A stretch of DNA of 64,000 bases from an uncultured Microthrixaceae bacterium (GCA_963748285.1 CAVVIF010000009.1:52262-116261); one strand, 5' to 3'. Counted from the first letter of the stretch, positions 2,225-36,766 are shown. Made by a program: numbers and translations. The notes: a model not told the origin generated them from the letters alone.

Positions 2225-2225
2225 G

Positions 2226-3050: not shown

Positions 3051-4221
3051 GCCGGCCTCGGCTGATCCACGTCACCACCACCGACATCAGCCTGGAGCTC
3101 CTGCTCGGCCCCCAGCTCCGGGCCTTCGCCGCCGCCGGCTACGAGGTGATCGGCGCCTCGGCCCCCGGGCCCTTCGTCGAGAAGCTCGAAGCCGACGGGA
3201 TCCGCCACGTCCCCCTCCAGCACGCCACCCGGGGGTGGTCGCTGTCCAGCGACGCCCGGGCCCTCGACGAGCTCCGACGGCTGTTCGCCGAGCTGCGGCC
3301 CGACATCGTCCACACCCACAACCCCAAGCCCGGGGTCTACGGCCGCATCGCGGCCAAGGCGGCCCGGGTCCCGGTCATCGTCAACACCCAGCACGGCCTC
3401 TACGCCACCGAGGACGACCGCGCGGCCAAGCGGGCCGCCGTCTACGCCCTCGAGCGCCTGGCCGCCACCTGCTCGGACGCCGAGCTGGTCCAGAACGAGG
3501 AGGACCTCGAGACCCTCGCCCGCCTCCGCGTGCCCCGCCGCAAGCTCACCCTGCTGGGCAACGGCATCGACCTCGACCGCTTCGACCCCGACCACGTCGA
3601 CCCCGACGCCGTGCAGGCCCTGCGCCACGACCTGGACCCCGACGGCGACGCCGTGCTGGTCGGCGCCGTCGGCCGCCTGGTGCGCGAGAAGGGCTACCCC
3701 GAGCTCTTCGAGGCCATGGAGCAGGTCCGCGCCGTGCACCCCGAAGCCCGCCTCGTCGTCGCCGGCCCCGCCGACCCCGACAAGGCCGACGGCGTCACCC
3801 AGGCCGAGCTGGACCGGGCCGAGCAGGCCGGCGTGCGCTTCCTGGGCATGGTCGACGACGTCGAGACCCTCTACGCCGCCCTGGACCTCTACGTCCTCGC
3901 CTCCCACCGCGAGGGCTTCCCCCGCTCGGCCATGGAGGCCGCCGCCATGGGCCTGCCGGTGGTGGCCACCGACATCCGAGGCTGCCGCCAGGTGGTGGAC
4001 CACGACACCACGGGCCTGCTCGTCCCCGCGGGGCGCAACCCGGCCGCTGGCGGCCGCCATGGCCGACCTCGTCGCCGAACCCGATCGCCGACGCCGATGG
4101 GCACGGGCTGCCCGCGCGAAGGCCACGACGGGAGTTCGACCAGCGACGGGTGATCGACACGACCCTGGACACCTACAATCGACTACTCCCAGTCCAGGGC
4201 CGAGCGTCGGCCTCGTCGTGA
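3047..4221 (+). CDS. GT4-family glycosyltransferase; two frame changes in the last ~190 nt
   Basis: ATGA overlap with the upstream stop at 3047-3050. GT4 C-domain: GRLVREKGYPELFEA...ASHREGFPRSAMEAAAMGLPVVATDIRGCRQVVDHDTTGLLVP. The C-terminus continues in two other frames (ALAAAMADLVAEPDRRRR..., then EFDQRRVIDTTLDTYNRLL) to the stop at 4219-4221. Confidence 0.85.
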
Positions 4222-4330
4222 CGAATGGAGCGCGATAATTCGTCCGACTCACCAACCAGGCACTACTCAGTTCCGGGGAGTTGGTACCGCTCATGGGAGT
4301 CTCTGCAACTACCAATAGTCCCCTAGACGC

Positions 4331-5048
4331 TCAGTCCGACTGAACAAGATCCGGCTTCTTGAGGACGAGAGTCTGCGCTAAGGCAGGATAGGACCCTACC
4401 TCCAATTCCTCCAGCATTGCCGTTATCCGGGCTGGATCGAACTCTAGGTGTCCATACAATTCTGCGTGGCGGCCATAGACGAGATCAAGCTGACTATGCT
4501 CTATCAGCGAACGGACGTCTATGTTGGACCCATACTTATTCGATGATCCAGGCGAGAAGGGTTCGATATTTAGAAACAGGTCGATCGTCGAGGACGGCAT
4601 GACCTCCTGGCCGCAAGATCTTATTAAGCTCGTGTGTCAGGCCTTCTATTTCCGATTCCGGGATGTGCTCTATGGTCGAAATCGAGTAGACCGTATCTAC
4701 CGACTCTCGTGGCAGATCTGCTGCTTGCAGCGTCGACTGGACGAGTTCAACGGAGGTGCCAAAAGCCCGATTCATCTTCTGGATGGTGGCACTGCTAACA
4801 GGCCAGCCGACGCCGCTGGCCTGGAGTCCCGGGTCAACGTTGACCACATGTGCGCCTGCGTCAGACAGGGTAAACTGGAAGCCACTCAATCCGCCACCGA
4901 TCTCGACAATGGACTGGCCGGGAAGTATCGGCACGGCATGAAAGGCCCAAGGGTACTCAACTCGACGGGTAGTGTTGTTCGGTTGGAACCCAAACGGTCC
5001 AACGACTTGCGGGAGCCGGGTCCGGATGCGCCTCGCCAGCCGGTTCAC
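4331..5048 (-). CDS. Class I SAM-dependent methyltransferase; one frame change near 4580
   Basis: VEYPWAF...SIVEIGGGLSGFQFTLSDAGAHVVNVD is a motif I-like GxGxG. ORF 4536-5048 continues into ORF 4331-4600 (GGHAV / TIDLFLNIEP...). Confidence 0.7.
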
Positions 5049-5357
5049 AGGCCGTGGGTATCGACAACCGTAGGGCGCGTGCCACCTTGCATTCCAACGA
5101 AGCAGATCGGGAGGGAGGTTGGCGGCGGAATCATCCCCGGCAGGTTAGCTAGGCTGAACCTAGAGGCGTGTCGGCTCGGCTCGAATCCGATGGCCACGCT
5201 GTGGCGAGTAGGGTTTGGGCCCTTACGTCTGTCCGAGATCAACTTGAGCGCCGTTCCCTGAAGCCGACCGGTATAGGGCCTGATTACATTGCTGCCTGGA
5301 TGTCGGCTCAAGCGCGGGGAGTCCGCTTGACATGTGGAGTGAAGTCGGTGAGCGTCG

Positions 5358-6573
5358 TCAGAGCGTTGCAAGTGTCTTCTTGAGTTGAGCGTCCCAGGTG
5401 CCGTCCTGCTCGACGTCGCGTCGAGCTGCCAGACCCAACCGGGTGCGAAGTGCAGAGTCTTCGAGTAGCCGGCTGAGCGCATGTGCAAGTCCGTCGACGT
5501 CGCCGGGCTCGTAGAGGAGCGCGTTCATGCCGTCGGACAGGGTCCGGGCGACATCGCCGATCCGCGGCGCAACGATGGCCCGACCGGCAGCCATGTACTC
5601 CTTGAGCTTCAGCGGCGAGTAATGGAAGTCCGCGTCCGAGCGTGCGGTGAGAACCGCCACGTCCATAGCCGCAAGGTGGTCAGGAACGGACCCGTGCGCC
5701 ACGGCACCGGTGAACGCCACCGCATGGGCGATGCCGAGTCGACGACACTGTTCCTCGAGAGCGACCCGCTCCTGGCCGTGGCCCACGAGGATCAGCCGAC
5801 TGTCCGGTCGACGCGGCAGGACCTGGGCGAACGCCTCGAGCGCGATCTCGACGCGCGTGGAACCGGCGGAAGGTGCCTGTCCAGCCGATGACCAAGTTCG
5901 ACTCCCACCCGAGGGCGGCTCGCACGTCAGCGCCGCGGTTCTCGGGGTCGAACTGCTCGGGGTCGACGGCCATGGGCGTGGTCACCAGTCGCTCTCGATC
6001 TACGCCCATGTCGGCGAGCGCGTTGTGCACCTCGTCCGACACGCACGCGATAGCGTCCGCCTCATCGAACGCCGCCTGTTCCGAGAAGCGTTCGATGAGC
6101 CGGCCCCAGCCTGGTCGTCGGACTCCCCATTTCCTGGCTTCCCAGACCTGGGGAGCATGGACGAAGAGGACCAGCGGACATCCACGCCGTCGCGCCAACG
6201 ACTCACCCGCATGGTGGAAGATGTCGTGGTGCTGCCACACCATGCCGAGTTCGAGATCCGCCCACGGCCCACGGTCGCCGACGTCCCGGAAGGATCTCGA
6301 GCGCAGGAACTGCCGCCCGTCCTTGGCGGCGGTGGTGAGCGTGGTCGGCAGCCGTCGCTCTCGCCCAGAAGACGGAATGGACTCCAGGCCCGTGTAGGAA
6401 AGCACCTGCTGGGGAGTGGCCACGGCGTCTGGGGTCACCACCCACGCGTACCCGAACCGGCGCTCGGCGGCAGCGGCCCACCCTGCCGCCGTCACCCACA
6501 GGGCATCGGCACCCGGCCATGCGGTACTGGCCCGGGGCATGACCAGAACCGCGGCACGTCGGTCCCCGCTCAT
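5358..6573 (-). CDS. GT4-family glycosyltransferase; one frame change near 5860
   Basis: The N-domain is in ORF 5680-6573. After ...IGWTGTFRRFH the sequence continues in the frame of ORF 5358-5786: VEIALEAFAQVLPRRPDSRLILVGHGQERV...SPLKLKEYMAAGRAIVAP. Confidence 0.75.
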
Positions 6574-6653
6574 CGGTCCAGCCGGCCTGTACCCGGCTCC
6601 AAACCCGCCCGTCCCACTCCCCCGCGTTCATCTGACCAGGACGGCTGAGAGCG

Positions 6654-7351
6654 ATGCGAGTCATCGGGTTCGTCCCCTCGAGGTTGAACAGCACCCGGCT
6701 GCCGTCGAAGAACATCCGACCACTCGGAGGGGTACCCCTCGTGAGCCGAGCGGTCGCCGTGTTGTCCGAGGTCGACGCCATCGACGAGACAATCGTGTAC
6801 GCGAGCGATGACGCGGTGATGGCCCATGTCGACGAGTCGCTTGCCTGTCGCTTCGTCGAGCGGCCGTTGCGGCTCGATGACGACGCGACCACGGCCGAGG
6901 ACTTCATCGAGGGGTTTCTCGACCAGGTCGCGTGCGATGTCGTCGTGCTCCTTCATGCCACCTCGCCGTTCATCCGACCGCTCACCGTCGCGCGCTGCCT
7001 GTCCGCAGTGGCCGATGGCGATCACCAGTCGGCGTTCGCCGCCTTGGCGGTCAGGCGATTCTGCTGGTTCGAGGGGCACCCGCTGAACTACTCACTCGAC
7101 GCGCCAACGCCCCGCACCCAAGAAACCTCACCCCCGTCGTCGTCGAGCAGTCCGGGTCTACGTCTTCACTCCGGGAGCTGTTCGAGCAGTCCCGCTCCCG
7201 GGTCGACGAGAACGTCGTCGCGCTCATCGACGAGGTCGAAGGCCACGACATCGACACTGCGGCCGAGTTCGCGATGGCTGAGGTCATCTTGATCGGGGGG
7301 AGCCCTCGAGATGGACGGCGATCAGGACCGGGCCCGCCAGTCGGGCCATGA
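6654..7351 (+). CDS. Acylneuraminate/ulosonate cytidylyltransferase family (CMP-sugar synthetase, NeuA/KdsB-like); frame changes near 7110-7160
   Basis: The N-terminus MRVIGFVPSRLNSTRLPSKNIRPLGGVPL is the classic CTP_transf_3 signature. Later VVLLHATSPF appears. The C-terminal part continues in the frame of ORF 6932-7351 (VVEQSG...ELFEQSRSRV...IDEVEGHDIDTAAEFAMAEVIL). Confidence 0.75.
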
Positions 7352-7375
7352 AATCCTGCTGTTCGATCCGAGGGA

Positions 7376-8230
7376 TCAGGTCCGAGGCCGAGGGCACGGA
7401 CCAATCGGAGACGACAAAGGGCCGATTCCTCGGGCACGCAACCACCGGGCGAGGTCGGCAGTCGAGCCGGCAACGAGTTCTGCCTCACCCGGGAGCATCG
7501 TCGTGCGGTTGTAGACGGCCCCACGGGAATAGGAACACATCGCCCGCGCCCGGCGGGCGATGTGCTGGACGCCGGCAGGCTGTCTGGAACGGATGCTCTT
7601 GAGCCGATGGGCGCCCGGCCCGACCCTGTCGTAGAAGGCTTCCGTCGTCGGCCGGTCGTAGAAGTGGACGTTGTTGCCCTTGGTGTTGCCGATGTCCCAC
7701 CCCACGAAGAACAACTCGGCGACGCCGAGGTGGACGGCGAGGTACACAGCGACCTCATACATGATGCCCGGGCCCCAGGGTCGACTCGTCTGCTGATCGA
7801 AGGTGTGCCGCTCGAAGTCCCGGGAATGAGCCAGGCTGTCGTCGAGGCTGGAGCCGTAGCGGATCCATGTCGAGCGCGATGTCGTGGCGGTTCAGCTGCG
7901 GGAAGCCGACGGCCGGGGTCGGCGCGCAGCACACGGATCGTCTCCGGTGAGGGCCCGGTAGCGGCTCACGTTGTAGGCGTTGAAGCACAGGAAGTCAGCG
8001 GCATCCCCGACCACGTCGATCGCCTGCTTGACGGCGATGACCGCCGACCCCTCGAGCGCCCTCTGGAGGGCCGCCTCCTCGAAGTCGCCCAGTGATGGTC
8101 CACAGGTCACGATCGCACAACGACCTCCAGCGAAGGCGTCTTTCAGAACGGCGAGCTGGGCGGTCGAGTCCCGGTGTTTGCGCACCTCCTCCGCCAAGCG
8201 CCGAGTCTGCTCACGCATGCAGCACGCCAC
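7376..8230 (-). CDS. DUF115/MAF-like or GT42-like (sialyltransferase-like) protein; at least two frame changes
   Basis: The N-part is GRCAIVTCGPSLGDFEE...VIAVKQAIDVVGDAADFLCFNAYN. The C-part is GPGIMYEVAVYLAVHLGVAELFFVGWDIGNTKGNNVHFYD. As I recall it, this resembles the Cst-II motif SGVYMCAVAIALGYKEIYLSGIDFY. The pieces lie in three frames (7892-8230, ~7760-7900, 7376-7762). Confidence 0.45.
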
Positions 8231-8236
8231 CCTCGC

Positions 8237-8879
8237 TCAAGCCGGCATCGTGCAGCTCCAAGAGGCTGTCAACGACCACGACCCACGCGTCGCGATCGTT
8301 TCCCGCCAGTCCGCCCTCTCGGTCCAGTGCGAGACGAACACGAAGTCGAGTTCGTGTTCCACTGCGACCTGGTAGTCGAGCTCGCTGTCGCCGATCAGGA
8401 CCGCGGGACGCTCGGCATCGGCCATCAGTTGCGCCACGAGCTCTGACTTGGCCGTCGGGCTACCGAAGATCCCGGCGAAGTCCGAGCTGAGCCCACGCTC
8501 GCGGAAGATCGCCCGCAACTCCTCTTGATCGCCGCCGGACACCACGTAGGCCAAGCCACCGGAATCGGCGATGGCGGCGAGAGCGCGGAAGCGCGGGATC
8601 GGCCGCGGCCGACCGCAGACCCTCCCGGCTCAGTTCACCGAAGCGGCCGAGGAGCCGCTCGACCTCACCGACCTCCGGTGGGCGGTTGAGGATCTCTGCG
8701 AAGAAGTGGTCGAGCTTCTCGTACCGGGAGACACCGGCGTTCTCGACGTGATATCTCACGAAGTCGGTGGAGGCGGCGGCGCCGTATGAGGCGGTCACCT
8801 CCGCCATCGCCCGGGATTTCACGGTGTTGGAGTCGAGGATGACGCCATCGCAGTCGAACAGCCAGGTGCGGTAGGTCAC
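8237..8879 (-). CDS. HAD-superfamily phosphatase; one frame change near 8590
   Basis: GTG at 8879. HAD motif I is LFDCDGVILDS. The C-part is in ORF 8237-8554 (AYVVSGGDQEEL...LIGDSELDYQVA). Confidence 0.7.
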
Positions 8880-8881
8880 GA

Positions 8882-10521
8882 TCAGACCGCGTCTGCGGGC
8901 GACGGCTGCCTGATCTCCTCCGCATAGAGCGATGATTGCGTGATCGGATACGTGGTGCGGGTGAGTGAGACGATCGGCGGGACTGACGGGTCCTCGGTGA
9001 AGAGGTCGAAGATTCCGAGCATCTCTTCCTGACGGGGATCGCCGGCGTCGAAGCCGTCGAAACCGGTGAGCAGGATACGACGAGCGCCCCCGCCGACGCC
9101 AGGGCCATCGCATACGCCGCCGCCTCGAGGCGAGGCAGCACGCACTCTGTGGACCCGATCGCCAGCTCGCCGGTGCTCACCGTCAGTCCGTAGTCCCGCA
9201 CCTCACCGGCGAACGGGAGATCACCGAGGTGGTACCGGATGGGCTCGGGCATGAAGACCGGCTTCGTCGACTCGGCGATCCGAGGGCCGTCGATGAGCGC
9301 CCGCACAGGGTGGCAGGCGACCAGGCAGTCGACGAGATCGGTCTCGACGGGGGGGACCACGTTGAGGGCGATCACCATCGGCTCCTTCTCGACGATGTAG
9401 CGCTCGATGTCGGTTCGTCTCGTCACGCCCGAGGGCCCGGGGGCGACGATCAGGACGTCGGCTCCCTGACACCAGTCCGTCGCCTCCCACGATCCGGTCG
9501 ACGGCTCGAGGCCAGGCTGGGTTATCGCCGAGCCGAGCCTTCCTGCTGAGTAGCGTCCACCACCGTCACGGCGAAGGTCCTCCAAGGCAGCGACGATCTC
9601 GTCGAGGTCGTAGCGGTTGTCCCGGGTCATCTCCTGGATGTAGGTCGGGTGGATCCCGTAGGAGGCGGACAGGAAGTAGAAGACGTTGGTCCCCCAGCCG
9701 TACTCGTCGTGGAGCTGCCGGAAGTCCGTTGTCACGGGCCCGACGAGCGGCAGGTGATCGACCGTTGCGAGACCGTGGGCGGCCAACTCGATGGCCAAGT
9801 ACTCGGTCCTCGCATTTCCGGGACCCCTTCCCATGCCCAGCAGGGTGCCGTCGACCCAGTGGGCGCCGTGCTCGACCGCCATCAGCGAGTTGGCCATGGC
9901 GAGAGACATGCTGTCGTGCATGTGACAGCCGATCGGGCCGGAGTAGCCATTGCGAACGGCGCCGATGATGGAAGGGATCTCCGGGCCGCGTATCGCTCCG
10001 AACGAGTCCGCGAAGTAGGCCACCTCGACATCCCAGGACTCGGCGTACCGACCGAACTGGGTGAAGTCCTCGGTGGAACGGTTGCTGGCCTGCATCAGGT
10101 TCACCCCGACCTGGTACCCGAGCTCGTGCAACCTCGTGACCGCCGGCTCGAGCTCCTCGAGCTCGTCGTAGTTCGTGGCGAACCTGACCAGCGAGACGGG
10201 GGTGGAATCCGCAGGACCGAACAGTCCTTCGATCACGGCAACAGGACCCTCGGGCCCGAGGACCTCCTTGGCGTTGACCATCACCCCCCATGTGATCCGT
10301 GTGGGGAGGTCGAACTGCCCGAGGAACGCGTCGGTCGTGTACACGAACGGACCCAAGTACCTGTCCTGGATCGGTCTGCGGAACCCGATCTCGACGACCT
10401 CGACCCCCGCTGAAACGACCGCGTCGAGGTAGCGCTCAACGACCCGTGGTTCGAAGTCCCAGTCGTTGTAGTAGCCGCCGTCCCGAAGCGTGCAATCGAG
10501 CAACACGCATGATCCCGCCAT
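8882..10521 (-). CDS. HMGL-like (DRE-TIM) aldolase fused to a C-terminal Rossmann-like domain; one frame change near 9085
   Basis: ATG at 10521. VLLDCTLRDGGYYNDW and GCHMHDSMSLAMANSLMAVEHGAHWVDGTLLGMGRGPGNARTE match the metal-binding D...HxH pattern of HMGL-like aldolases. The C-domain is ADVLIVAPGPSG...AAYAMALASAGARRILLTGFDGF. Stop at 8882-8884. Confidence 0.75.
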
Positions 10522-10592
10522 GTCCACTGTCGAACGAGCGTACCACTCCGCGCTCGTCGACCCAGGGCACCATTCGGGCGTCACGAAGCCGT

Positions 10593-11390
10593 TCAGCCCG
10601 GCGCCCCGCTCCCGCTGCCGGTCTGTTCGGGCCCCTCGAGACGGGGACCAATCGATGCCGAGCCGTCGTCGACCACGCGCACCCACTCTGGTCGGCGATA
10701 GCCGAAGTGGGAGATCTCGGAGCGACATTGCCACTCGATCGACCGATTGGCGGCTGAGGAGAGCACGGCCGACCGCGACGTTCTCGTCTGACCTTCGCAG
10801 CGGCAGGGCGGGCAGGTCGAAGGACCGATCCTGCAGAACGAGGGAGAGCCCCTCCTCCAGGCGGTCGAACTGGATGACGTGATCGACATCGAGTCGGCCG
10901 TCTGACGTATACTCCCTCCCAGTCACTGATCCATTGGTGCTGGAGCACCCAGTCGCTGACCGGGGGGCGATCGTCGGGTGGGAGGTTCTTGTTGTAGAAG
11001 TAGTACCAAGACACCGCCTTGTCCCACGGGTTGCGCTCGACGGTGAAGGTCGTAAACCGGTCCCAGCGCCGACGGCCGAGCCGAGCCCGGATCTGGAACG
11101 CCTGCATGTGCTGGTGGTATCGGCGGAGGCGATGCAGATCCGCTAGCGGCTGACGGACGCCGCTGCCCTGCAGGCGCCACCTGTTTCGCGCCAAGCGGGT
11201 CACCATCTCAGGGAGAGGGTTGAACGGCCCACCCCAATTCCGAGGTAGATGACCCTCCCTCCGCCGGTTCGACCGGCGTGACCACTGCGTCCCGACCCGC
11301 AACCGCGGAAAGCGCGCATTCGATGCTCGTGCCCGCCGTCTTTCGCGTCTTCACGAAGACGAAATCGTGCTCGTAGCTGATGATCGTCAA
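10593..11390 (-). CDS. Sulfotransferase (family-2-like); at least three frame changes
   Basis: The N-terminus is MTIISYEHDFVFVKTRKTAGTSIE (a PAPS 5'-phosphosulfate loop-like KTAGTS). The middle is FTVERNPWDKAVSWYYF. The C-part is DVDHVIQFDRLEEGL...EISHFGYRRP. The pieces lie in four ORF-track frames. Confidence 0.6.
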
Positions 11391-11435
11391 GGCCAGCGCC
11401 CCGAAGGCCGACGGTTGCGGTCCGGCCGCTCGGCC

Positions 11436-12301
11436 TCAGTAGACGCACTCCCACCACAGCCCTACTGACCGCCCGGGCATAGCGGCGATGGAGCAGGGCC
11501 CCACGGACGCGCCGCAGCGAGTACTGCGCCAGGGCGATTCGGCTGAGCTGCCACTCCGCCTTCGGCTCGGCCGGACCGTGCTCTCGCCAGTAGCCGGCGT
11601 AGACGAGGTCGAGTAGCTCTCGTGGCGACGCGGCCAACGACTGCCGGAGATCCATCGCGCTCCGGGCGAGCCAGGCGACCTCGTGCGCCGCAGTGCGCAC
11701 CTCGTACCGAATCGGGAGGTCGCCGACACGGAGTGTGCCTCCGTCGTCGAGGAAGAAGTTGTAGACGCCACAGTCCAAGAAGGCCACGACGGGCTCGACG
11801 GAGTCGGCAGTGCGGGCCAACTTCGTTCGCCTCCCCAGCCGGGGAGTGATCTGGAGCGCGAAGTCTCCGGGCCGTGTCCTGCGTGGTCGGTCCAGAGGCG
11901 GCTCCACCTGCGACGGCGAGATGGAACTTACGAAGCTGCCCAGCGCAGCGCGCCACCAGAGCCCGCTTGCTGTGGGGGTCCAGGGAATCGGAGGCGAGGA
12001 GCGTTGCGACGTCCAGTCCGCGGTAGCGGTCCATGACCAGTGCACGGGCACGAGGCAGATAGCCGACCGACTGGATCGTTTCGATGCCCTGCAACGTCAA
12101 CTGCTTGTCGAGCGCTTCGTAGGCGGCGGAAGTCTCCGGCGTCCACGGCGCACGGTCCGGCTTGGACACCTTGGCGACGAATTCGCGACCATCTCTCGCG
12201 CTCAACGCGTACATGTGCGAGGTCCGACTCTCCCACGTTTCGTCCACGCGGAAGTCGTCATCGAAGCGGTCCCGGCACTCGGCAAGGAGCTCGGCGGTCA
12301 C
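11436..12301 (-). CDS. Protein-kinase-like fold phosphotransferase (APH/Kdo-kinase-like); frame change near 11930; 3' end uncertain
   Basis: The N-lobe is YALSARDGREFVAKVSKP...ALVMDRYRG (ORF 11462-12910 frame). The C-lobe is VVAFLDCGVYNFFLDDGGTLRVGDLP...LVYAGYW (ORF 11200-12051 frame). I could not align the catalytic motif confidently. Confidence 0.4.
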
Positions 12302-12396
12302 CGATGCAACAGCGACGGGGACCGTCGGACCCGCCCCCACGTGTGGTGGCGTCAGCGGCCCTGCTGCCGCCGGTGAACCCTTGTCCTCACGGCGGT

Positions 12397-13319
12397 TCAC
12401 GGCACGACTCGCCGCGGGTATTCGTAGCTGTCCATGAGTCGCCGACAACCTGTCTCGATGGCGGCCCGGTGTGCGGACCGTAGCCCTACCGTCCACGAGT
12501 CGTCCCCTGCTACCTCCACTGGTCCCCGCTCGAGTCCCACGTTTCCCCACGCAAGGTGATGCTTCTCGACCTGGACGATCCCACGTCGAAGCTGGGTGCA
12601 GATGCGATCCGCGCCTATCGCCTCGATGGTGGTCGCCGGGTCGGCGACGAAGTCCTGGTAGCGCACTCGGACCGCCGAGCCTGCGGAAGCCGACCGACTG
12701 AGACGCTCGACTGCACGGTTCGAATGGTTCCACCGATGGCTGTCGGCGATGACGCTGGCCAGTTCCCGACGGGGACTGAGCTTGCCGTAGCCCTTGCGGT
12801 CGTAGAGGTCCCGCCCCCGCCGTAAGCGAGAGTGGATCGCCCCCCGAGGATCGCGGACAAGATGCACGATTCGAAGGCGCGAGGCCGCGCACGACAGCGC
12901 CGCCGTCCATCCAGGATGATTCGACGAGTCAACGATCATCGCCGAACCGGTCGCCTCGAGGAGAGCAGAAAGGGCCGGTTTGACGAGGATCTCGCCCATC
13001 TCGTGCGGCCACGTCCCGCTGACACGACGGGTCCAGCCCTGACCTGAGTGACGCGTGATCGATGCCGCCAAGTGGGACCACTGGATGGAGCCGTCAGACG
13101 CCACTGCCTCGAGGACCGGACCCCATCTCGGACAGGAGTCAATCGGGTCGCCACACGAGCACTTCCGCCCGAGTGCGACTGACTGCGGGAGGTAGGCGAG
13201 CTCGCCGACGTGGATGGCGCCACTCGAGTTTGAGGACAGCGCTTCTCCGAGAAGCGTCGATCCGCTGCGGGGGAAGCCGGCAATGGAGATGACGGTATAG
13301 GCGCGGATTCTCCCCTCAT
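12397..13319 (-). CDS. Sulfotransferase (P-loop type); single-base frame change in a G-run next to the start codon
   Basis: ATG at 13319-13317 is followed by a GGGG run (13315-13312). One extra G would give MRGRIRAYTVISIAGFPRSGSTLLGEAL (5'-PSB loop), in frame with ORF 12397-13104, which contains RIVHLVRDPRGAIHS (3'-PB-like). Confidence 0.75.
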
Positions 13320-13326
13320 GGCTGCG

Positions 13327-14560
13327 TCAACCGGGTCCCCCGCGGGACGCCACCGCCGCCAACAACCGCGTGACGGCCTGTTCTGTGTGGGCGGACATGA
13401 AGTGCTCCCGGTAGAGGATCGACGCTTCCTCCCCCTTCCGCACCACCCCATCGGGTACGTCGAGCCACTCGGCGATCTCGCTCGCCGCCGAGCTCGGATC
13501 GTTCCCCGCACGATCGCTCCGCCCTTCGGCCTCTGCGATCCGTCCGCGAGTAGATAACTGGCTGTGCCGATCTCGTCCGACACAACCACGGGTGTCCCAC
13601 GACTGAGCGACTCGAGCACGGCCATGCCACCATCCTCGCGGGCGAGCGACACGAAGACGTCATGCGTCTCGTAGAGGTGCCACATGTCGTCGTAGGTGAC
13701 GTCGTGGCGCCATTCGACCCGATCGGAGAACTCGAGATCGTCGGTGAGCCGACGCAGGTCGGTCAGGTAGTCGCGGGCGTGTTCGGACCGCTCTGGCGAC
13801 GAGCTGCCCAGTCCCGAAGCGACAATGGTCACACGCGCCGGGTACCGAGTTCGACGAGTTCGTGCCCAACCCGAATGACGCTCTCGATTCGTTTGAATCG
13901 GGCAAGGCTCCCCACGAAACAGGAGTCGAATCTCCGCATTCCCGAGGTACGAGCGTCCGGATGGCACGCTGGTGGTCGTCGTGGAGAACGGAATCCAATA
14001 GCTGTCGAAGATCGGTCCATTGTGGGTCCACGCTGCTGAAGGAGAGATCGGCGTGAACTTGAGCGGTTTCGCCCTGTCGAACGGACGGACGAGCAAGGCC
14101 GCCACCCTCTGCTGGGCAGGTCCCAATCGAGGCCACTCGAGCGGCCGGATGTTGTAGAGGACGAAGACGACCGGGACACAGTGGCGAGCAACCACGTTCC
14201 GACGATCCCGAGTCTCGTCGAACGAATGACCACGAAATCCGGCCGGAAGGAGCGAAATTCTCTCGCCAGTGCCATGAGGCTGGGGGTGTACTCCCAGTAG
14301 CGCAGTGGCTTACGCCCAGTCAGACGTCGCAGGAAGGATCGGGCGTTCGAGAGAACGCTACTGCCGACCAGGACGCAGTCGGGCGGCACGATCGACGTGG
14401 TCTCGGGCCGCTCATGTGTATTGATGAGGATCCGGATGTCGCACCCGAGGTCCCGAAGGCTGTGCACGAATGCATGGAGATTCGGATGGAAGAGGGGGAC
14501 GACCAAGAGCCCACGGGGGTGCCGCCCGCCCACGGGTGGACGAGTCACACCTCGGGTCAC
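13327..14560 (-). CDS. GT4-family glycosyltransferase; at least four frame changes
   Basis: The GTG at 14560 overlaps the upstream stop (GTGA). Pieces: LLVVPLFHPNLHAFVHSLRDLG..., IRLLFVGSLARFKRIESVIRVGHELV, RVTIVASGLGS..., and VFVSLAREDGGMAVLESLSRGTPVVVSDEIG. The tail DPSSAASEIAEWL...AVASRGGPG ends at TGA 13329-13327. Confidence 0.7.
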
Positions 14561-16363
14561 GAAGCAGCGACGGACTGGGCGGGCCTGTTGGCCAGTTCCA
14601 GCACCCGCTGGTAGTACGAGTTCGAGGAGAGCAGCACCCCAGGTTCATCCACTGCTTGGAGCTGCCCCGATTCGAACACCATGAGCCGATCGCAGTTCGT
14701 GAGCGTAGACAACCGATGAGCGACGATGAAGAGCGTTGTCGTCTGCCGCAGTTCCTCCAGCGTGCTCTGAATCGCCGCCTCGGACTCGAGGTCGAGCGCG
14801 GCTGGTCGGCTTGTCCAGGACCACGACGGCTGGCCTGCCCACCAGGGCTCGCGTTATGGCGACGCGCTCGGCGTTGCCCGCCGGAAAGGGAACGCCCCTC
14901 ATCGCCCACGGGTGTGTGTAAGCCCTCCGGCATCCCCGAGAGGTCTCGCTCGAGGTGTGCGCTCTGCGCTGCCTGAACGATGAGGTCGTCCTCCACGTCG
15001 TCGCGAAAGAAGCGGATGTTGTCCGCGATCGTCCCAGCAAAGAGCAATGGCTCTTGCGGCACGAACGCGAAGAGGCTCGTCCATGTCCTGAGGTCGAACT
15101 CGCCGGCGTCAACCCCGTTGACCAGATGTTCCCCGTCGTCGGCGAGCGCAGGCGAAGGAGCAGCTGGACCAATGTCGACTTCCCCGCACCGGACGGGCCG
15201 ACGATGCCGATCATGTCGCCTGGATGCGCCGCGAACGAGATCTCCTGGAGCGCCGCCTGCCCGGGGGTGTACTCGAAGCCCACGTCATCGAAGCGGAGCT
15301 CCTCCACCACGTCGAGTCCACGGTGCCCGTGCACCCGTGCCCCTGCGAATCTGGCCTGACTGGCCCGCAGCCGCTCGATGTACGGATTGGCCGCCTGAAG
15401 GGTCTGATAGTGGGTCTGAGCCTGCGTGGCGTACGACGAAGCCCGTACGAAGATCAGGAGGATCGCGGTCAGCGCCGCGAAGCGGCCACTCCCGGTTGCG
15501 TACAAGATCCCCAGACTTGCCACGATGCCGAGGCCGAGAGCGGTCTGGTACAGGTCCGGCAGGGAGCTTTGGGCGAGGTTGGCACGGAACCGATCGCGTC
15601 GGACCGCATCGTCGATGTCACGCGCGCCGTCGACCCACCGGTTCAGCGACGCCGAAGACCTCGATCTCTTGAGCCTGCGCGGTGATCTGCACGAGGAAGC
15701 TCACAAAGCGCAGGTTGGCAGACGCCGACCTCCGGTTGAACAGCCGAACCAGGCGTGAAAGCGGACGCAGTGCTGCAAAGAGCACAACCAAGGTGACGAT
15801 GATCAGCACTGCGAATCGCAGGTCGAGGAGGAAGGCCGATATGGCGAGCGTGGCCAGCGTGCCGACACCCGCGAGAAGTCTCGTTGCGGCCGACACCGCC
15901 ATTACGTTCTGCTGGACGAACGTGGTGGCCATGTCCTGGAGATGACCAGACCGCTCGTCTGCTTTCACCGACCACGGGGAGCTCAGGTAGGTGGACAAGA
16001 CGTCGCTACGGAGTTCGTGGAGCACCGTTGTGGACATCTTGGCGGATAGCACCTTGGTGACGAGGCGCAGCACGAGGCGCACGGCGTGAGACCGAACGCC
16101 ACGGATAAGGCCACTCCGACCGACAGGCTGGCGTCCAACGGGCCGGGCGAGAACGCAATCGTCGTCTGGTCGGCAGACAGGGCCACCGCCACCTCAGCAA
16201 GGATGACCAGAAGAAGGGTCTCGCTGATGCCGACGAGAACTGAGGCCCCCGCGATGACGATGAGTGGTGAACGGTGCGCACCGAGAAGCTCGAGCAGGTC
16301 CGTCCACGACGTGTCGCCTCGACTACTCTTGAGCAGCCGACGTATTGATCGGGCATTCGCCAA
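14557..16363 (-). CDS. ABC exporter, fused permease-ATPase (MsbA/type I exporter-like); several frame changes
   Basis: TMD pieces are in ORFs 15983-16363 and 15618-16082. The NBD has Walker A GIVGPSGAGKSTLVQLL, then LSGGQR and VVVLDKPTS. The C-terminus is TTLFIVAHRLSTLTNCDRLMVFESGQL, with TGA at 14559-14557. Confidence 0.8.
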
Positions 16364-16729
16364 TGTGCGACGTACACGCTTTCTCGACGCCTTGGTCTTC
16401 GACCTCGTCGTCGCTCAATCTCGCACTCTCTACTAGGTCCGCAACGCTCGGCACAGCGACGCATCAAAGCTGCGAGCGCTCCTTCGCCGACAAAGCCAGA
16501 GTCGGGCGAGCCGATCCGCCAGAATGCCAAATCATACCACGGGGTCCGCGCCGCACGCAGTTGTCCACGTTGCAGAAGGTGATGAAGGTGTGCGACGACT
16601 GTAGAGCCAGGAGGAGCATCCCAGTGGACCCCAGCGAGCGACGAACGTCAACGGAGGGTAGACGGCTGGCCGCCGTGGCAGGACGGTGCTCGACACACGT
16701 CGCATGACCTCACGATCCTACGGGTCACG

Positions 16730-17442
16730 TTAACTGTAATCATAGCCAAGCACTTCAAAGTCCTCCGAGTAGAGGCGATTACAATCTCCCTTGCTCGCTG
16801 GTTCCACACGATCGTCGTCGTCCTTCTCTGACCGGTTCCATGGATATCGAGCGACAACTGAAAGCTGCTCAGCAACGACTCGCATTGCGGACAGATTCTC
16901 GATCTGCACAATGGAGTCGAAGGGCATCCTAAACGACAGGCCAAGTAGACCCCGGCGAGTAGTTTGATATCTGCGGATCAGATGACTGTCGTGTTGGCTA
17001 CTGCTGGAAGGATCTCGATGAATCGATCGAATTCCAGTTCGAGAATCGACTCGACCTGCGCCTCCACCGGATCCTGACTTGTCACACCCAACCACGGATA
17101 GAAGATCACCTGGTGTCGCTTGAGTCGATACGGATCCACGGCGCTCAGCGCTTGGCGCGGCCTGCTCCGGAGTTTCTCCCAGTAGAAGGACTCAAGCCGG
17201 TCATAAGGATTCCGCGTTAGCAGAGTATAACTAGCCGATGACAGGTGGGGCGCAACAGAGCGTGCAACAAGATGGGCGTAACTGCGCCGACTGGAGAACC
17301 GTTCAAGCGAGGGTTGGCTGAGGAGTGTCTGGGTCATAACTTTTGGATTTGTCGCCAAGTAGTGATTGCGACTCGGCTTTGAAGATCCACATGTTCGAAA
17401 TCCCCTCTTGCACGCTAGGTAGATGGAACACTGCTTGAGCAT
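16730..17442 (-). CDS. Sulfotransferase (family-2-like); one frame change near 16985
   Basis: TLLTRNPYDRLESFYWEKL matches the family-2 RNPxxRxxS pattern. The C-part is FDSIVQIENLSA...NRSEKDD...LYSEDFEVLGYDYS in ORF 16730-17095. Local G+C is low. Confidence 0.65.
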
Positions 17443-17689
17443 TTCACCCGGGACAACTCCACGCGACGACAGTCAGCGGTTAAGTATAGGAGCACTTGAC
17501 CGGACAATCGAAACGAGGCTCGTCGAACTGATCTTCGTCAGCGTCCCGTGAGGCGTAGTAGATAAGCGAGATGTTTCCACCCGTTGGTGGGGCCACCGGA
17601 GAGATGATCCGACGTGACCTAGCGGGGTACACGAAGGAGAACACGCCGATGACCCTCACTCATCATGACCTGTCAGAACGGCTCGAGAA

Positions 17690-18151
17690 AGTAAGGCGGG
17701 CGAGACCGATGTTGTCCGCTCGAGCCTGACCTGGATCTTCCAAGAGCTCATCGAGGCCGAAGCGACCGCCCAGATGGCGCCGCGCCATCGGGCGCACCGA
17801 GTCCGGACCGCGAGCGCCGCGGTCACCGGCCACGGCTATTCTCCACGGCGGCGAGCGATGTCGACTTGAAGACCCCGAAACTCCGGACCGGCAGCTTGAT
17901 CCCGTCGCTGCTGAGAACGCCGGCATATCGGGCCCTGGTCGGAGTCGTGATGGAGGCCAACGGTGCGCGGTGTGTCGACCCGCAAGGTCGATGGCCTGCC
18001 CTCGCATGGAGAGGCTTGCGGGACCCACCCAACCGGGACCCGAAGCGCTCGACCATTGCGCAGGCAACTCGAAGGGGCTTTCAGAGAAATCTCTATAGAA
18101 GTCATCTCGGACAGAGATGTCGCCGTACACCCTAGCGCTGAGCCTATTTGA
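17690..18151 (+). mobile_element. IS256-family transposase remnant (N-terminal third only, frame-shifted)
   Basis: FQELIEAEATAQ..., DVDLKTPKLRTGSLIPSLL, RALVGVVMEA and GVSTRKVDGL are spread over three frames. These match the IS256 hallmarks (LMEAE, PKLR.GSF.PSLL, GVSTRKVDDL). The remnant truncates at about 18151. Confidence 0.65.
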
Positions 18152-18330
18152 TTCCGTCGCGCTCGCGCGATGCAGCACGGGTCCTCGGGTGTACTCCTTT
18201 CAGTAAGGCTTTGACGGCCTTCGTTCTAAGAAGGGACTGGCTCATACGATTCTTTTGGGCCCCACAACAGGCTCCGGAGCCCTGCGACGCTTGCGCGCTC
18301 TAGACTCCGACGCGCCCGTGAAGGTCCGAC

Positions 18331-18995
18331 CTAGACCTGATCGAAAGCCCGAACCGTGATGATATACCAAATCGCCATAGATCCCAAAGAACAGTGGATG
18401 CAGGTCGAGTCATTGGTCCGGGTGAGCGGGAACCAGTCATAGCCACCACGATCTAGTTGCCCAAGGAGAGTTCCGCCTACGTCGCTGACTGACCTCCCAT
18501 CCTCATCAAGCCACCGTGCTGGCATCAATCACCCCAATGTCACTCCAGAATCCCACCGTCGTCGCACAGAAGCATGGATGCGGTTGCCTATCGCCGATTC
18601 TCGAGTCGCTGGACGGCGGCGAGTGGATAGTCGTCCAGAATAGTTCTAATGGGCTCGAGTAGCCGGGCTATCGGGAAGGCATCACCATCGAGGAAGATCA
18701 AGATATCATCCGATCTTTTGGTGCGACCACTGATAATTTCCGCCAAGAGGTTCAGTCGCATGGCGTGATCCGTACCCCCAACGGAAGGCTCTGGGGTCGC
18801 TGTGGTCACGAAATCAAACTTACGGTGATGCTCCTCCGAAATGCCGTCTAACGAGGCGTAGGTCCAGAATGGTGTATCGACGTTCTCCTTGAGGTATCGC
18901 CGCTGGATGTCGATCCATCGGTCATCACGCCAGTGAACGGTTGCTATGTGGACATTAGGACCTCGACCCCGAGTGTTCAGTGGGGGTAGAATCAC
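18331..18995 (-). CDS. Nucleotide-diphospho-sugar transferase-like protein (DxD), disrupted
   Basis: ILIFLDGDAFPIARL is a DxD-like motif. After RLENR the sequence continues in another frame as GDRQPHPCFCATTVGFWSDIG, then in ORF 18331-18528. The family was not identified. Confidence 0.4.
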
Positions 18996-19088
18996 GGAGT
19001 CTCAGAGCAGGTACTCAGAGCTTCCAAGCGAGACCAGATGGTTGACATTGACTCGGGATCAAGTCGTCCGGAAAGTCGGTGTGGTGAA

Positions 19089-19775
19089 CTAAGTTCGAAT
19101 CAAAGAACGCGTGGTCTGGATAGCCGAGGTTGTACTGAACACATAAATGCCGGAGCTGCCGCGAAGGCGGTCACGATCGACGTCGAATCGCAGCAGGGGG
19201 AAGGGCGCCTCAGCATGTTCCGAAATGAGCCGCTCATTGTACACACGCCAGAGCTCGGGCGCTCGTCTCTGAGAGAGTTGGCTCGTTCGGTTCCTGAGTG
19301 AAGCACAAACGGCCATTGGGTGTCGATATATTCCACCGAAGCAGATTCCAGAATCCCACAAATGCCGTTTCCATTCATCCAGCACAAGCAAGGTACGGGG
19401 ATCCTTGAATCCCCAAGGTTGGCATGCCGAAGACATCGATGATACAAGACGACTGAGTCGTGTGCGCTGGTCTTGCGTCCACGAGTTCGGGTACCGGGGT
19501 CTGTCCCAACTGCCTCCGTTCGCTCTCAGAACCGAGTCATGCAATTGAACAAGTGCTCGGTCCTCCCTGTTTCCGAGCTTGTTATGGGTGTTGCGCTCGG
19601 AGACGTTGCCGAGGTGCAGTCCGGAGGCTTGTAGACCTCCTGCCAACCAACTTGTGCCGCTACGGTGCATTCCGAGAATGACGACAGGAGGCAACGCCGT
19701 AGGCTCTGTAGCTGGTTGCACGGTCCTAACGTTAGCCGAGGAGACGGGCAGGCGATTTGAGTCCGAGCGAAGCAT
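19089..19775 (-). CDS. Sulfotransferase (P-loop type)
   Basis: VVILGMHRSGTSWLAGGL is a 5'-PSB loop. FKDPRTLLVLDEW is 3'-PB-like. The 228-aa ORF is mostly continuous, with a possible frame change in the last ~60 nt. Confidence 0.7.
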   Translation of the reverse strand: MLRSDSNRLPVSSANVRTVQPATEPTALPPVVILGMHRSGTSWLAGGLQASGLHLGNVSERNTHNKLGNREDRALVQLHDSVLRANGGSWDRPRYPNSWTQDQRTRLSRLVSSMSSACQPWGFKDPRTLLVLDEWKRHLWDSGICFGGIYRHPMAVCASLRNRTSQLSQRRAPELWRVYNERLISEHAEAPFPLLRFDVDRDRLRGSSGIYVFSTTSAIQTTRSLIRT

Positions 19776-19833
19776 CCCCTACTTTGACCCACTCTTGCGC
19801 TGAGGTGGTGACTCCATCTCGTGAGGAGTCCTG

Positions 19834-20646
19834 ATGCGCCGTCCACATCCTCTGGAGTTCCGGCGCCGGGCCGTCGGCCTGGCCAACCAACGCGACGAGC
19901 AAGGGTGAGCAGGGCACGCCGGTAGCCCGGGTCGCCGAGGACCTTGGCGTCGCTGAGAGTTGCCTGCGGAACTGGATCGCGCAGGCCGAGATCGACTCAG
20001 GCCGCCGGGAAGGCCGAGCACCGCCGAGCGGGCCGAAGCTGGTCGAGTTGCGCCGCCGGGCTCGGTGCTGGAGTCCGACACGAGATCCTGAAGCGGGCCG
20101 CGGCGCTCTTCGCCCGGCCTGCTGGAGGTCGGGGACCCTCGCGGCGAAGTGCGGGCGGGCTACGGGGCACCTAAGGAAGTCGTCCGGTCCATCTACGAAC
20201 AGGTACGACGCCGACCTCCGCGTCGCCTTCGGGACCCATCGGCCCCGACTCCTAAGACCCGACACCGCCAGAGGCCCCTCCCTCGGCCGCACGCTGCTCG
20301 AACGTGAGACGAGATCGCCGTCTGGCACCAAGCGCACGTCTCCAACGGGCCGACGGGTGGCGGTCAACAACCTCATCGGAGGGATCAAGCGGGTCGCCTT
20401 CGATCACCTTCACCAATCGCCGGATCCAGGCCCGGCGCTACGCCGGCAGGCCAACTGCGAACTGTTCCCGGCCATCATGCGCCGCTGGAAACGCGAGGCG
20501 CCCCATATGCACCACGAGATGGGGCAATTGAGACCGGGCGAGGCGTACTGCGTCTCGCGGGGACCAGCCCTCAAACCGGCGGGGTCAGAGCATGGGCGAC
20601 ATATTACTTGGCCGGCCTACGGGGTCAGAGTCACCGGCGATCTTGT
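19834..20646 (+). mobile_element. IS3-family transposase remnant (orfA plus the start of orfB, decayed)
   Basis: MRRPHPLEFRRRAVGLA...VARVAEDLGVAESCLRNWIAQAEIDSGRREG...LVELRRRAR is IS3/IS911 OrfA-like. Downstream orfB-like fragments are multiply shifted and truncated at the next gene. Confidence 0.6.
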
Positions 20647-21490
20647 TCACGCTGGACTCAAATCCCCTAGACCGGCAGAATGGAGTAGTTCCAGTTCCGC
20701 GGCTGTGAAGAGCGGACGGAAATTTGGACGACGCAATAGATGAAGCACCTCGGTCGGGAATGATGTCTCCCGGAACCTCTGAGCCAGCTCAATCGCTGTC
20801 GGCACCCGATCCTGCCCAGTGAACGAAGAGCCGCCACCCTCCTTGGAGATCCCTGGAACCGAGTCGAATTCGAGATCGATCTCGCCTAGGAGGGCGCGTC
20901 CGATAGTCTGGGCTCTCGTCAACCCAACGGTCAAACCAACAGACGTGCCACTGCGACGCGTCGGCCTTGCTCAAGTCCAACAGAACCTGCATAAATTGCT
21001 CATCGACCTTGGTGGTTGGACCCGCCCGCTCCGTCTGCGCTCTTGAGGCGTTTCGATGCAGTCGGGAAGCTACCAGGTTTAGCGTGGAACGCCTTATGAC
21101 AATTGCCTCCGTTGTAGACGGACTAGAGAGCGCCTGTAGATAGTCGAGTCGACGCTCCTCAGTAGAAACTACGATGAAATCAGACTGCCGGATCTCCCTG
21201 CGGCGACTCCATACAGCTTGAGCGAAGCTTCTTCCAGATCTGCCCACGTCATTGAGAAAGACAGTTCGGCCACTGCCAGTTCGCTGGAACCTCGTCCCGC
21301 AGGCTTCATCCGTGATAAGTGCTTCGTTCTTCTCCTCAAGAGCATTCACCAACCACGCAACAATCGCATGATTCCCACTCCGACTCATTCCAGTTACAAA
21401 GAATCGCCGCTTGCCGCGTGAAAGCCAATTCAAGTAGACACAGATAGATCGCTCAAGGAGCGACTTCGCGGAACGGTGAAGGATGTTCAT
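20647..21490 (-). CDS. P-loop, sulfotransferase-like hypothetical protein; one frame change near 20900
   Basis: RRFFVTGMSRSGNHAIVAWL resembles a sulfotransferase PSB loop. The C-part is in ORF 20647-20934 (LLGEIDLEFDSVPGISKEGGGSSF...). Confidence 0.4.
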
Positions 21491-21879
21491 CTAAGGAGGC
21501 TCCGGAGGGCTGAATTCTCGGCACGCAGTCTGCACTGGATTTCGTAGACAGTATGTCGCAGGCCGAGGTCAACGGGGCCTCGCCGTCATTTCCGTCTGCT
21601 CCAAGGCGTGTTCGGTCCCGCAGAACTCAAGCGTGAGGCCATCGCATCAGGCCACGGTCTTGCCGAATCGGGCCAAGTGCCCCACTCGATCTCCCTTGAT
21701 CGGGCGACCAGCGTTGCCTAGGCATGAAGCATCCTTTCGCCGCGACCGCGGCGAGATGTACCGGCAGCAACTTGCCAAGGCGCCCGAACCAGACTGGCCC
21801 GGAGAGCGTCATGCCTGGCCGGACACCTGGCAGTCGGTCTCGGGTGTAGCTGTCATGGGCTGGGAAGCGACTTGGAATT

Positions 21880-22330
21880 CCCCGTTCGTTGAGAGCTCTC
21901 TGCGACCGCCCGTTCAATGGATCGGCCAGCCTGCGAGGCACGGCCATCTGCACCCGACCTCTACTCGACGGGCTCGAGCCGACGCTCCTGATGGACGGCG
22001 AACTCTTCAGTGGCCCGGCGTCAGGCGCACGACTGGCGTGATGCAGGTCCCCGGCGAGGCGCGCTACGGGCTTTCAGAGAGCTCCGAGAGAGCGGTTGAA
22101 CGCCACCGGCCATTGGCGACGCCGTCGCGGTCTGCGGGAAACAGGGCCGGGACCAATCCTCAACGCCATCGAGCACGGGGCATCTCCAACGGCCGCGTCG
22201 AAAGGTATGAACACCAAGGCCCGACTGATCGTCCGCCGCGCCTACGGCTTCCACACCGCCGATGCCGCCGTGGCGCTCGTCATGCTCGCCGCCGGACCGA
22301 TCAACCTCTGCGCTGCCACACAAACAAGCC
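21880..22330 (+). mobile_element. ISL3-family transposase remnant (C-terminal end, frame-shifted)
   Basis: ILNAIEHG / ISNGRVE / MNTKARLIVRRAYGFHTADAAVALVMLAAGPI matches the conserved ISL3 C-terminus (SNGRVEGLNNK.RL..RRAYGFH...AL.ML). It is split over two frames. Confidence 0.6.
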
Positions 22331-22432
22331 CCCGCTCACACCGCGACATGACCACATCACTGTCAGGAGAGCCGGTAATGGCGCAATCATCAGAAATACC
22401 ACTATCGCCGTAGGACTAATACACTGGCCCGG

Positions 22433-23179
<747 letters not shown>

Positions 23180-23183
<4 letters not shown>

Positions 23184-24416: not shown

Positions 24417-24429
24417 GTTCAGCGCCACC

Positions 24430-24912: not shown

Positions 24913-24998
24913 CCGGTCCCCCACGGGCCTCACGGCGGCGGGAAGGCACGAAGCGTGACGACCGGGAGACCTGACCCCGCCGCCGCAGGCCCATCCGG

Positions 24999-27358: not shown

Positions 27359-27360
27359 GC

Positions 27361-28418: not shown

Positions 28419-28442
28419 CCACCGCAGTCGGCCGGGGGCTGA

Positions 28443-28965: not shown

Positions 28966-29077
28966 GAGATCCTCCACCCAGTGAATGTCACCCTAAGTGT
29001 GCACGATGGTAGCAGCCGGTGTCCATCCCGACCGGCGCCACCGGCGCGACGTCTCGCCCCTTTCCGTGTCCTCGTGG

Positions 29078-35303: not shown

Positions 35304-35328
35304 GCGCGCCGGCGTCCTCCCTGGTGAC

Positions 35329-36745: not shown

Positions 36746-36766
36746 GAACCCTCGTCCGGTCGGGTC

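Follow-up and report, generated by a model that had tools for sequence, protein, structure and literature searches.

A probable species-specific surface-polysaccharide cassette at a fixed site beside sufC in an uncultured Microthrixaceae bacterium

The pneumococcal capsule locus, cps, sits between dexB and aliA. The O-antigen clusters of Salmonella are composed of segments of differing, sub-genomic G+C content, with remnants of insertion sequences (IS) and H-repeats at the junctions and housekeeping genes as flanks (PMC3715488). Here we analyse a low-G+C tract in a 64,000-nucleotide stretch of DNA from an uncultured Microthrixaceae bacterium (GCA_963748285.1 CAVVIF010000009.1:52262-116261; hereafter the window, with positions counted from its first nucleotide), the host assembly of which comprises 4.66 Mb in 9 contigs with 72% G+C. 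The tract (4222–22392) lies between a GT4 glycosyltransferase (GT) gene and sufC2-sufS-sufU (sufCSU), an iron–sulfur (Fe–S) assembly unit, and is very probably a hypervariable cassette that is specific to the species and belongs to a cell-surface polysaccharide locus, at a fixed site between conserved anchors. The features expected of such a locus were found: glycan genes with an exporter, a fixed site, contents that differ between relatives and a segmented, lower G+C content.

Fixed borders and differing contents

A 19.9-kb query was compared with 30 relatives and the matching regions were then aligned; within the genus only the two ends of the query are conserved. On the left, homology ends at 4184–4203, in the last codons of the GT gene (stop at 4221), in four genomes (G003, G007, G008 and G009), and the flank leading up to this border (1254–4203) shares 80–91% DNA identity with the relatives. 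On the right, homology restarts at 22388–22397, 40 nt before the GTG start codon of sufC at 22433, a border common to six genomes (G001, G003, G006, G007, G008 and G009) and 11 metagenome contigs; the sufC2-sufS-sufU flank is 85–91% identical to the relatives. A metagenome scan with the conserved element upstream of sufC yielded 13 contigs, of which the 11 mentioned begin to match at 22393–22397; none of the contigs carries island-like DNA upstream of the element and none is conspecific (≤88% identity). The borders given by an original prediction made from the sequence alone (4222 and 22432) were accurate.

The interval between the GT gene and sufC measures 2.2 kb in G007, 15.6 kb in G003, 15.75 kb in G008 and 23.2 kb in G009, and 18.2 kb here. 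Its DNA is nearly without similarity between species, whereas the flanks are 80–91% identical. The relatives' intervals have 61–72% G+C, below that of their own flanks, and differ in content: that of G008 encodes an FkbM methyltransferase, GT2s, a formyltransferase, a DegT aminotransferase and an ABC exporter; that of G003 a carbamoyltransferase, acyl-CoA dehydrogenases, an acyl carrier protein (ACP), an AMP-ligase, two sulfotransferases, GT4s and an exporter; and that of G007 only an acyl-CoA dehydrogenase. Families that are shared (the methyltransferase, the first GT4, the cytidylyltransferase and the exporter) have 30–59% amino acid identity, compared with 88–94% for SufC, and the regions at 9–14.5 kb and 16.4–22.4 kb have no protein-level counterpart in any relative's interval. 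The ABC exporter, with 30–48% amino acid identity to all relatives, is the sole gene family common to all cassettes.

The surroundings of the tract vary as well. In G001, an acyl-CoA dehydrogenase gene is followed by 3.9 kb, sufCSU and then, 37 nt after sufU, directly by sequence corresponding to window position 38.9 kb (G001:C1, reverse-complemented, 15964–20000, compared with window 24888–38888). Because they are absent around sufCSU of G001, both the left block of extracellular polysaccharide (EPS) genes together with the tract (~29 kb) and the 14-kb 'EPS core' at 25–38.9 kb are accessory; by this comparison the EPS core, too, is accessory within the genus. Within the accessory region around sufCSU, variability and species specificity are greatest in the low-G+C tract.

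Base composition sets the tract apart from the rest of the genome (57–66% compared with 72% G+C). In 1-kb windows, the G+C fraction falls from 0.75–0.77 at 1–4 kb to 0.59 at 4–5.5 kb, is 0.63–0.69 at 5.5–16 kb and 0.55–0.66 at 16–22.5 kb, and reaches 0.70–0.75 past 22.5 kb (genome-wide mean, 0.721; standard deviation, 0.025). By segment, G+C is 57.4% (4204–5300), 65.9% (5301–16400) and 59.8% (16401–22392), compared with 75.6% and 72.0% in the two flanks, and on both sides of the tract the content steps by 15–18 points at a single nucleotide position. This is the longest low-G+C tract in the assembly (17 kb, with 7.5 kb for the runner-up); of the 16 windows below 60% G+C genome-wide, seven are in the tract and nine in the ribosomal RNA operon. 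In tetranucleotide distance, the 4-kb windows of the tract rank 2, 4, 6 and 10 among 1,162, and G+C at third codon positions (GC3) is 0.59–0.84 within the tract compared with 0.86–0.98 outside. None of these profiles is flat and the tract stands out in each, which bears out the 18-kb tract of lower G+C content, with at least two compositional layers, that the original prediction had described. The DNA is likely to be of foreign origin. A low G+C content is common in glycan loci, for reasons that are incompletely understood (PMC3715488), and the genes could in principle be native, with their G+C content lowered in situ by relaxed selection or local mutational bias and no transfer. We consider this highly improbable, given the single-nucleotide steps on both sides, the lack of orthologous DNA in congeners despite such similar flanks, a tetranucleotide signature that differs by layer and a cargo gene whose nearest relatives are scattered over phyla.

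Genes were read from single open reading frames (ORFs), X-masked whole-frame Pfam scans, frames inspected by eye and tblastn searches with the relatives' intact proteins (Table 1). The tract holds two GT4s, a methyltransferase, a cytidylyltransferase, an aldolase, a HAD phosphatase, four to five sulfotransferases and an ABC exporter, a set that reads as a cassette for glycan synthesis, decoration and export and, by these assignments, is not foreign to the EPS region; the aldolase, HAD phosphatase and cytidylyltransferase make up a predicted CMP-sugar-acid branch. Two genes could be followed over their full length: the first GT4 (one frame switch) spans residues 28–434 of the 450 of its G003 homologue, with 50–53% amino acid identity, and the exporter spans residues 15–597 of the 599 of the G003 exporter; the G008 homologue of the exporter has both ABC_membrane and ABC_tran domains. 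Amino acid identity to cassette genes of G009 is 57–59% for the methyltransferase and 43–46% for the cytidylyltransferase. One of the two genes at 7376–8236 looks, by eye only, like a nonulosonic-acid transferase. In the left-anchor GT gene, an assembly frameshift near 4035 precedes the true stop codon, which is at 4221. An Rfam scan of 3–26 kb returned only a sub-threshold microRNA match, which is noise.

The position of the exporter differs between species. In G003 and G008 it lies just upstream of sufC on the same strand; its stop codon precedes the sufC start by ~50 nt in G003 and the conserved element by ~0.7 kb in G008. In the present genome the exporter gene is inverted, 6 kb away and separated from sufC by the IS-scarred segment, which points to a rearrangement specific to this genome.

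Table 1. Features of the tract and of its two anchors.
Feature	Position	Strand	Remarks
GT4 glycosyltransferase, conserved left anchor	2957–4221	+	Pfam Glyco_trans_1_4 / Glyco_transf_4; 74% G+C
SAM-dependent methyltransferase	~4330–5260	−	Methyltransf_11/25/12 at 4593–4907, frame-tolerant scan; 57.5% G+C, lowest layer
First GT4 glycosyltransferase	5361–6582	−	Glyco_transf_4 N-terminal; Glycos_transf_1 C-terminal at 5370–5855
Cytidylyltransferase, CMP-sugar synthetase type	6654–7292	+	Pfam CTP_transf_3, 6.8e-18
Two genes	7376–8236	−	No Pfam match; 43–46% amino acid identity to G009 cassette genes
HAD-type phosphatase-like gene	8237–~8900	−	DUF7124 (PF23439), 4.3e-6; DxD...GDS HAD motifs read in frames
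HMGL-like enzyme, pyruvate-aldolase fold	~8900–10550	−	PF00682, 2.1e-25; N-terminus read in frames
Putative sulfotransferase-2-like gene, then putative kinase-fold gene	~10600–12396	−	Inferred by eye only; single broken ORFs with no Pfam match
Sulfotransferase	12397–13326	−	Unbroken 310-codon frame; Sulfotransfer_3, 2.6e-8; GC3 0.75
Second GT4 glycosyltransferase	13327–14560	−	Glycos_transf_1 and Glyco_trans_4_4 pieces, two frames
Fused TMD-NBD ABC exporter, MsbA/PglK type	14587–16348	−	ABC_tran; 3–4 frame switches
Sulfotransferase-2-like gene	16978–17472	−	Sulfotransfer_2, weak, E 0.0088; 55% G+C
IS256-family transposase remnant	17708–~18010	+	N-terminal residues ~22–125 only; 68% G+C
DxD transferase-like gene	18331–18995	−	Read in frames; no Pfam match; 55% G+C; at least 2 frame switches
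Sulfotransferase	19089–19778	−	Unbroken frame; Sulfotransfer_3, E 5.4e-4; 57% G+C
IS3-family OrfA remnant	19843–20117	+	HTH_Tnp_1, 24.8 bits; 72% G+C
ISL3-type transposase C-terminal remnant no. 1	~20270–20500	+	Motifs SNGPTGG / NNLIGGIKRVAF over three frames
Putative P-loop sulfotransferase-like gene	20789–21490	−	Unbroken frame; inferred only, from GMSRSGNH motif read in frames; 55% G+C
ISL3-family transposase C-terminal remnant no. 2	22126–22341	+	About the last 70 of 419 residues
AT-rich genus-conserved element	22388–22432	+	51% G+C; alignment of 8 copies from 7 genomes
sufC2-sufS-sufU, conserved right anchor	22433–24912	+	sufC2 at 22433–23183; sole SufS and SufU of the genome

The original prediction had read the tract as a discrete mobile island, integrative or like an integrative and conjugative element (ICE), which entered once between the GT gene and sufC and split an EPS locus. 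Sharp compositional borders and transposase fragments fit that account, which we nevertheless hold to be very unlikely. Integrative islands and ICEs are recognized by an integrase at one end and by a transfer RNA (tRNA) or transfer-messenger RNA gene or att repeats. Here, the 64-kb window contains no tRNA gene, frame-tolerant scans of the tract revealed no integrase, domain scans showed no conjugation genes, and no tyrosine recombinase is encoded within 120 kb (the nearest PF00589 match, at C9:198773, is ~124 kb away). Searches for bounding direct or inverted repeats, att sites, IS terminal repeats and target duplications gave only chance-like short matches. A composite transposon, with the same IS on both sides and inverted repeats, is not seen either; the IS pieces are single stubs of different families or subfamilies. 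Furthermore, the cargo is itself of EPS type, it is the sufCSU backbone that separates the EPS blocks, and the same site is filled differently in every relative. No empty junction was found, the shortest interval (G007) being occupied by the backbone acyl-CoA dehydrogenase gene, and no IS-free gene order is conserved across the relatives, whose contents differ by species.

Assembly errors and insertion-sequence remnants

Just beyond the tract, sufC and sufS are split over several frames in the assembly. Alignment of 22393–24890 to seven copies from six congeneric genomes showed exactly five private single-nucleotide insertions in the 2.5 kb of sufC-sufS-sufU (22802, 23203, 23255, 23512 and 23793), every one of which coincides with a frame break. 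Because SufS and SufU are encoded by single-copy genes, these breaks cannot represent true pseudogenes. Two more private insertions occur in the 2.95 kb of the GT block in the left flank (1254–4203), and CheckM completeness is 66% despite the assembly having 9 contigs. The assembly thus has a background of ~1.3–2 spurious single-base frameshifts per kb, essential genes included, and therefore a gene being 'frame-shifted' says nothing in itself about decay; where the original prediction took it as a sign of decay, it is mostly assembly noise. Over five cargo genes (the first GT4, the ABC exporter and the unbroken frames at 12397–13326, 19089–19778 and 20789–21490; 5.3 kb), frame switches number ~0.9 per kb. 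As this does not exceed the background, these five genes are probably intact, and the frame breaks of cargo genes are mostly insertion errors of the assembly. The demonstration that frameshifts in this assembly are mostly artefactual is the main practical yield of the analysis: readings of this genome that depend on frameshifts, missing stops, odd fusions or decay should be discounted until the sequence is polished. An LPXTG ORF without a stop codon at 27.8–29.0 kb is an example that calls for such caution.

An assembly this rich in errors, together with the foreign composition of the tract, could also point to a chimera, in which contaminant DNA was mis-joined into a contig of a long-read metagenome assembly. 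We regard a chimera as extremely improbable: both junctions lie at exactly the nucleotides that bound the variable interval in six other genomes, the tract holds the family-typical exporter and a GT4 with 49–54% identity to cassette genes of the relatives, and CheckM contamination is 0.6%.

Four transposase stubs of three families lie in the right third of the tract, all truncated and all devoid of catalytic domains; no intact IS256, IS3 or ISL3 copy is present elsewhere in the 4.66-Mb assembly. The IS256 stub contains the sole PF00872 match in the genome (17806–17949; profile positions 58–107 of 379, 22.7 bits). It aligned by tblastn with residues 22–108 only of a 354-residue Streptomyces IS256 transposase, and a GVSTRKVD motif, recognized by eye, carries it to about residue 125, near 18010; its DNA is ~70% identical to IS256 copies on actinobacterial plasmids. 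Since a PF00872 transposase of ~380–420 residues defines the family, we classify it as a remnant derived from IS256. The IS3 stub corresponds to residues 4–95 of an Iamia IS3 OrfA (52–73% identity, over three frames). IS3 elements pair the helix–turn–helix (HTH) of OrfA with the rve (DDE) domain of OrfB; OrfA is present alone, as OrfB has no match at the locus and rve was found nowhere in the genome. Of the ISL3 family, characterized by a PF01610 transposase of ~400–420 residues, only two C-terminal stubs remain. Within the first, 20342–20493 shares 72% identity (E 2e-11) with a transposase fragment from Streptomyces, which itself matches DDE_Tnp_ISL3 above the cut-off (positions 210–239 of 240). 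The second matches PF01610 at profile positions 199–234 of 240 with 18.1 bits, below the cut-off of 23, and residues 356–418 of a Rhodococcus ISL3 transposase by tblastn (47%, E 4e-12). The genome has no other copy of it, and it stops 46 nt short of the conserved sufC element. Both ISL3 stubs are C-terminal ends and share their orientation; their subfamilies differ. Relatives of the stubs are actinobacterial (Streptomyces, Rhodococcus, Mycolicibacterium and Iamia), and so is the type of their composition.

The truncated plus-strand remnants of three IS families named by the original prediction are thus present, with changes in extent. For IS256 (predicted at 17690–18151) the family was right and the extent too wide; in the span assigned to IS3 (19834–20646) the OrfA part stands, and the part at ~20270–20500 is an ISL3-type C terminus, not OrfB; for ISL3 (21880–22330) the family was right, and demonstrable homology starts only at 22126. 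The stubs have at least eight frame switches in ~1.25 kb. Because this exceeds the background of the assembly, some genuine decay in addition to truncation is likely.

The alternation of minus-strand cargo with plus-strand transposase pieces that had been described for the right third is strict, and it extends to base composition, with 55–57% G+C in the cargo compared with 67–72% in the stubs. A separate history for the right third, with IS activity playing a part, is probable; the segment at 16.4–22.4 kb, in which low-G+C cargo is interleaved with IS stubs, would represent a later or separate layer, and the stubs would be scars of past insertion and deletion events rather than active elements. 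A more specific version, compatible with the cassette reading, is that the right third arrived separately as modules borne or captured by IS elements, with each of its low-G+C sulfotransferase or transferase genes carried in or reshuffled by IS256, IS3 or ISL3 elements that later eroded. We consider this version possible, if rather doubtful. It would account for the strict alternation, for the absence of these IS families elsewhere in the genome, for the lack of a protein match in any relative's cassette and for the excess of frame switches in the stubs. On the other hand, no gene lies between two homologous IS copies, the searches detected neither terminal inverted repeats nor target duplications, and the two ISL3 stubs, from different subfamilies, are both C-terminal and in the same orientation.

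The sufCSU anchor and cassette exchange

The 45 nt before the GTG of sufC2 (AAATACCACTATCGCCGTAGGACTAATACACTGGCCCGG) are conserved in all eight copies from the genus, whatever lies upstream, including a second, tandem copy in G007 that follows a sufU gene, and have no second occurrence in the genome even with up to 8 mismatches allowed. They include the hexamer TACACT (TACAAT in G001), which ends 7 nt before the GTG. A TANNNT −10 box at such a spacing is the geometry of leaderless transcripts in mycobacterial and other actinobacterial promoters. Most likely, sufC2-sufS-sufU carries its own minimal leaderless promoter within these 45 nt. Because the element is conserved regardless of the upstream sequence, sufC expression is probably independent of the island DNA and of the ISL3 stub; the dependence of sufCSU expression on island sequence, as originally proposed, is unlikely. 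Upstream of its −10-like box, the element also holds a partial palindrome, CTATCGCCGTAG, which could be a candidate binding site for a regulator.

A canonical suf operon (sufB, a small ORF, sufD, a Rieske-ferredoxin gene and sufC) is present at 41181–45547 on the minus strand, so that the genome has two SufC paralogues that are 50–60% identical, one in this operon and the other, sufC2, 19 kb away on the opposite strand. An IS-mediated inversion that split a single sufBDCSU operon was considered and rejected: the canonical operon has its own sufC, and the position and orientation of sufC2-sufS-sufU are conserved in all relatives. In G007 (G007:C8), sufC-sufS-sufU occurs in tandem (7563–10062 and 10072–12589), with the 45-nt element before each copy; the first copy has 97 private indel columns, many of them single-base insertions, and the tandem could be either a real duplication or an assembly artefact.

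These observations can be combined into a model of how the cassette works and how it came to its site. The cassette's genes would build, decorate and export one glycan, and congeners carry other cassettes at the same site, predicted to serve a formyl-amino-sugar glycan or one with carbamoyl, acyl and sulfo groups. Most likely, foreign blocks of lower G+C content replace one another through homologous recombination in the GT and sufC flanks, which are conserved, much as O-antigen and capsule loci switch; this route is proposed because the borders are sharp and common and site-specific machinery is absent. More tentatively, and with somewhat less than even confidence, we propose that surface-glycan cassettes are exchanged genus-wide in a serotype-like manner, anchored on the essential, single-copy sufCSU unit, the own leaderless promoter of which would make swaps harmless to Fe–S assembly; the product in this bacterium would be a heavily sulfated, sugar-acid-bearing glycan with genes from at least three donors. 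If so, the diversification of actinobacterial surfaces in the environment under pressure from phages or grazers would be a direct parallel to the switching of O-antigens and capsules by pathogens.

Several points weigh against this account. No conspecific genome or contig with another cassette was found, the nearest metagenome match being 88% identical. The acyl-CoA dehydrogenase gene lies to the left of the GT block here and to its right in G007, G003 and G009; the arrangement of backbone and glycan blocks thus varies from species to species, which means that rearrangements other than simple cassette swaps have occurred. Homologous recombination is deduced only from the sharp common borders and the absent site-specific machinery. 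No donor was found: for the sulfotransferase at 19089–19778, a search of 185,579 species genomes returned best homologues of 46% and 43% identity, in metagenome-assembled genomes of Solirubrobacterales and Gammaproteobacteria, respectively. The promoter assignment comes from the sequence alignment alone, and a scan for sigma-70 and terminator consensus upstream of sufC, with consensus of the Escherichia coli type, gave no hit.

Comparison with known systems

Like tRNA-linked genomic and pathogenicity islands, the tract has atypical G+C content, a mosaic structure and IS debris; unlike them, it has no tRNA gene, integrase or direct repeats, and its cargo is functionally continuous with the neighbourhood. 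The exporter recalls PglK-type (MsbA-like) flippase pathways for lipid-linked oligosaccharides, as a single fused TMD-NBD exporter lies among GT4 and sugar-modifying genes; with exporter copies only 30–48% identical within the genus, this resemblance is at the domain level only.

The closest likeness is to O-antigen loci (in Enterobacteriaceae, between galF and gnd) and capsule loci, with which the tract shares a fixed site between conserved flanks of housekeeping type, lineage-specific gene sets, layered sub-genomic G+C content, internal junctions marked by IS or repeat remnants, a dedicated exporter or flippase that changes together with the cassette and the lack of a site-specific recombinase. 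It differs from them in that the lineage is of the high-G+C Gram-positive type, the right anchor is an Fe–S assembly unit rather than sugar-metabolism genes, export is of the fused MsbA/PglK ABC type and not Wzx/Wzy or Wzm/Wzt, and the comparison is between species rather than between serotypes of one species. The biological value of the finding is modest, the pattern being ordinary for such loci; it adds a high-G+C lineage that has been little studied to those with a variable glycan locus of low G+C content set between conserved anchors, and indicates that an Fe–S assembly unit can act as an anchor of such a locus. The type of locus is already familiar, and its unusual points are the lineage, the Fe–S anchor and the sulfotransferase-rich content.

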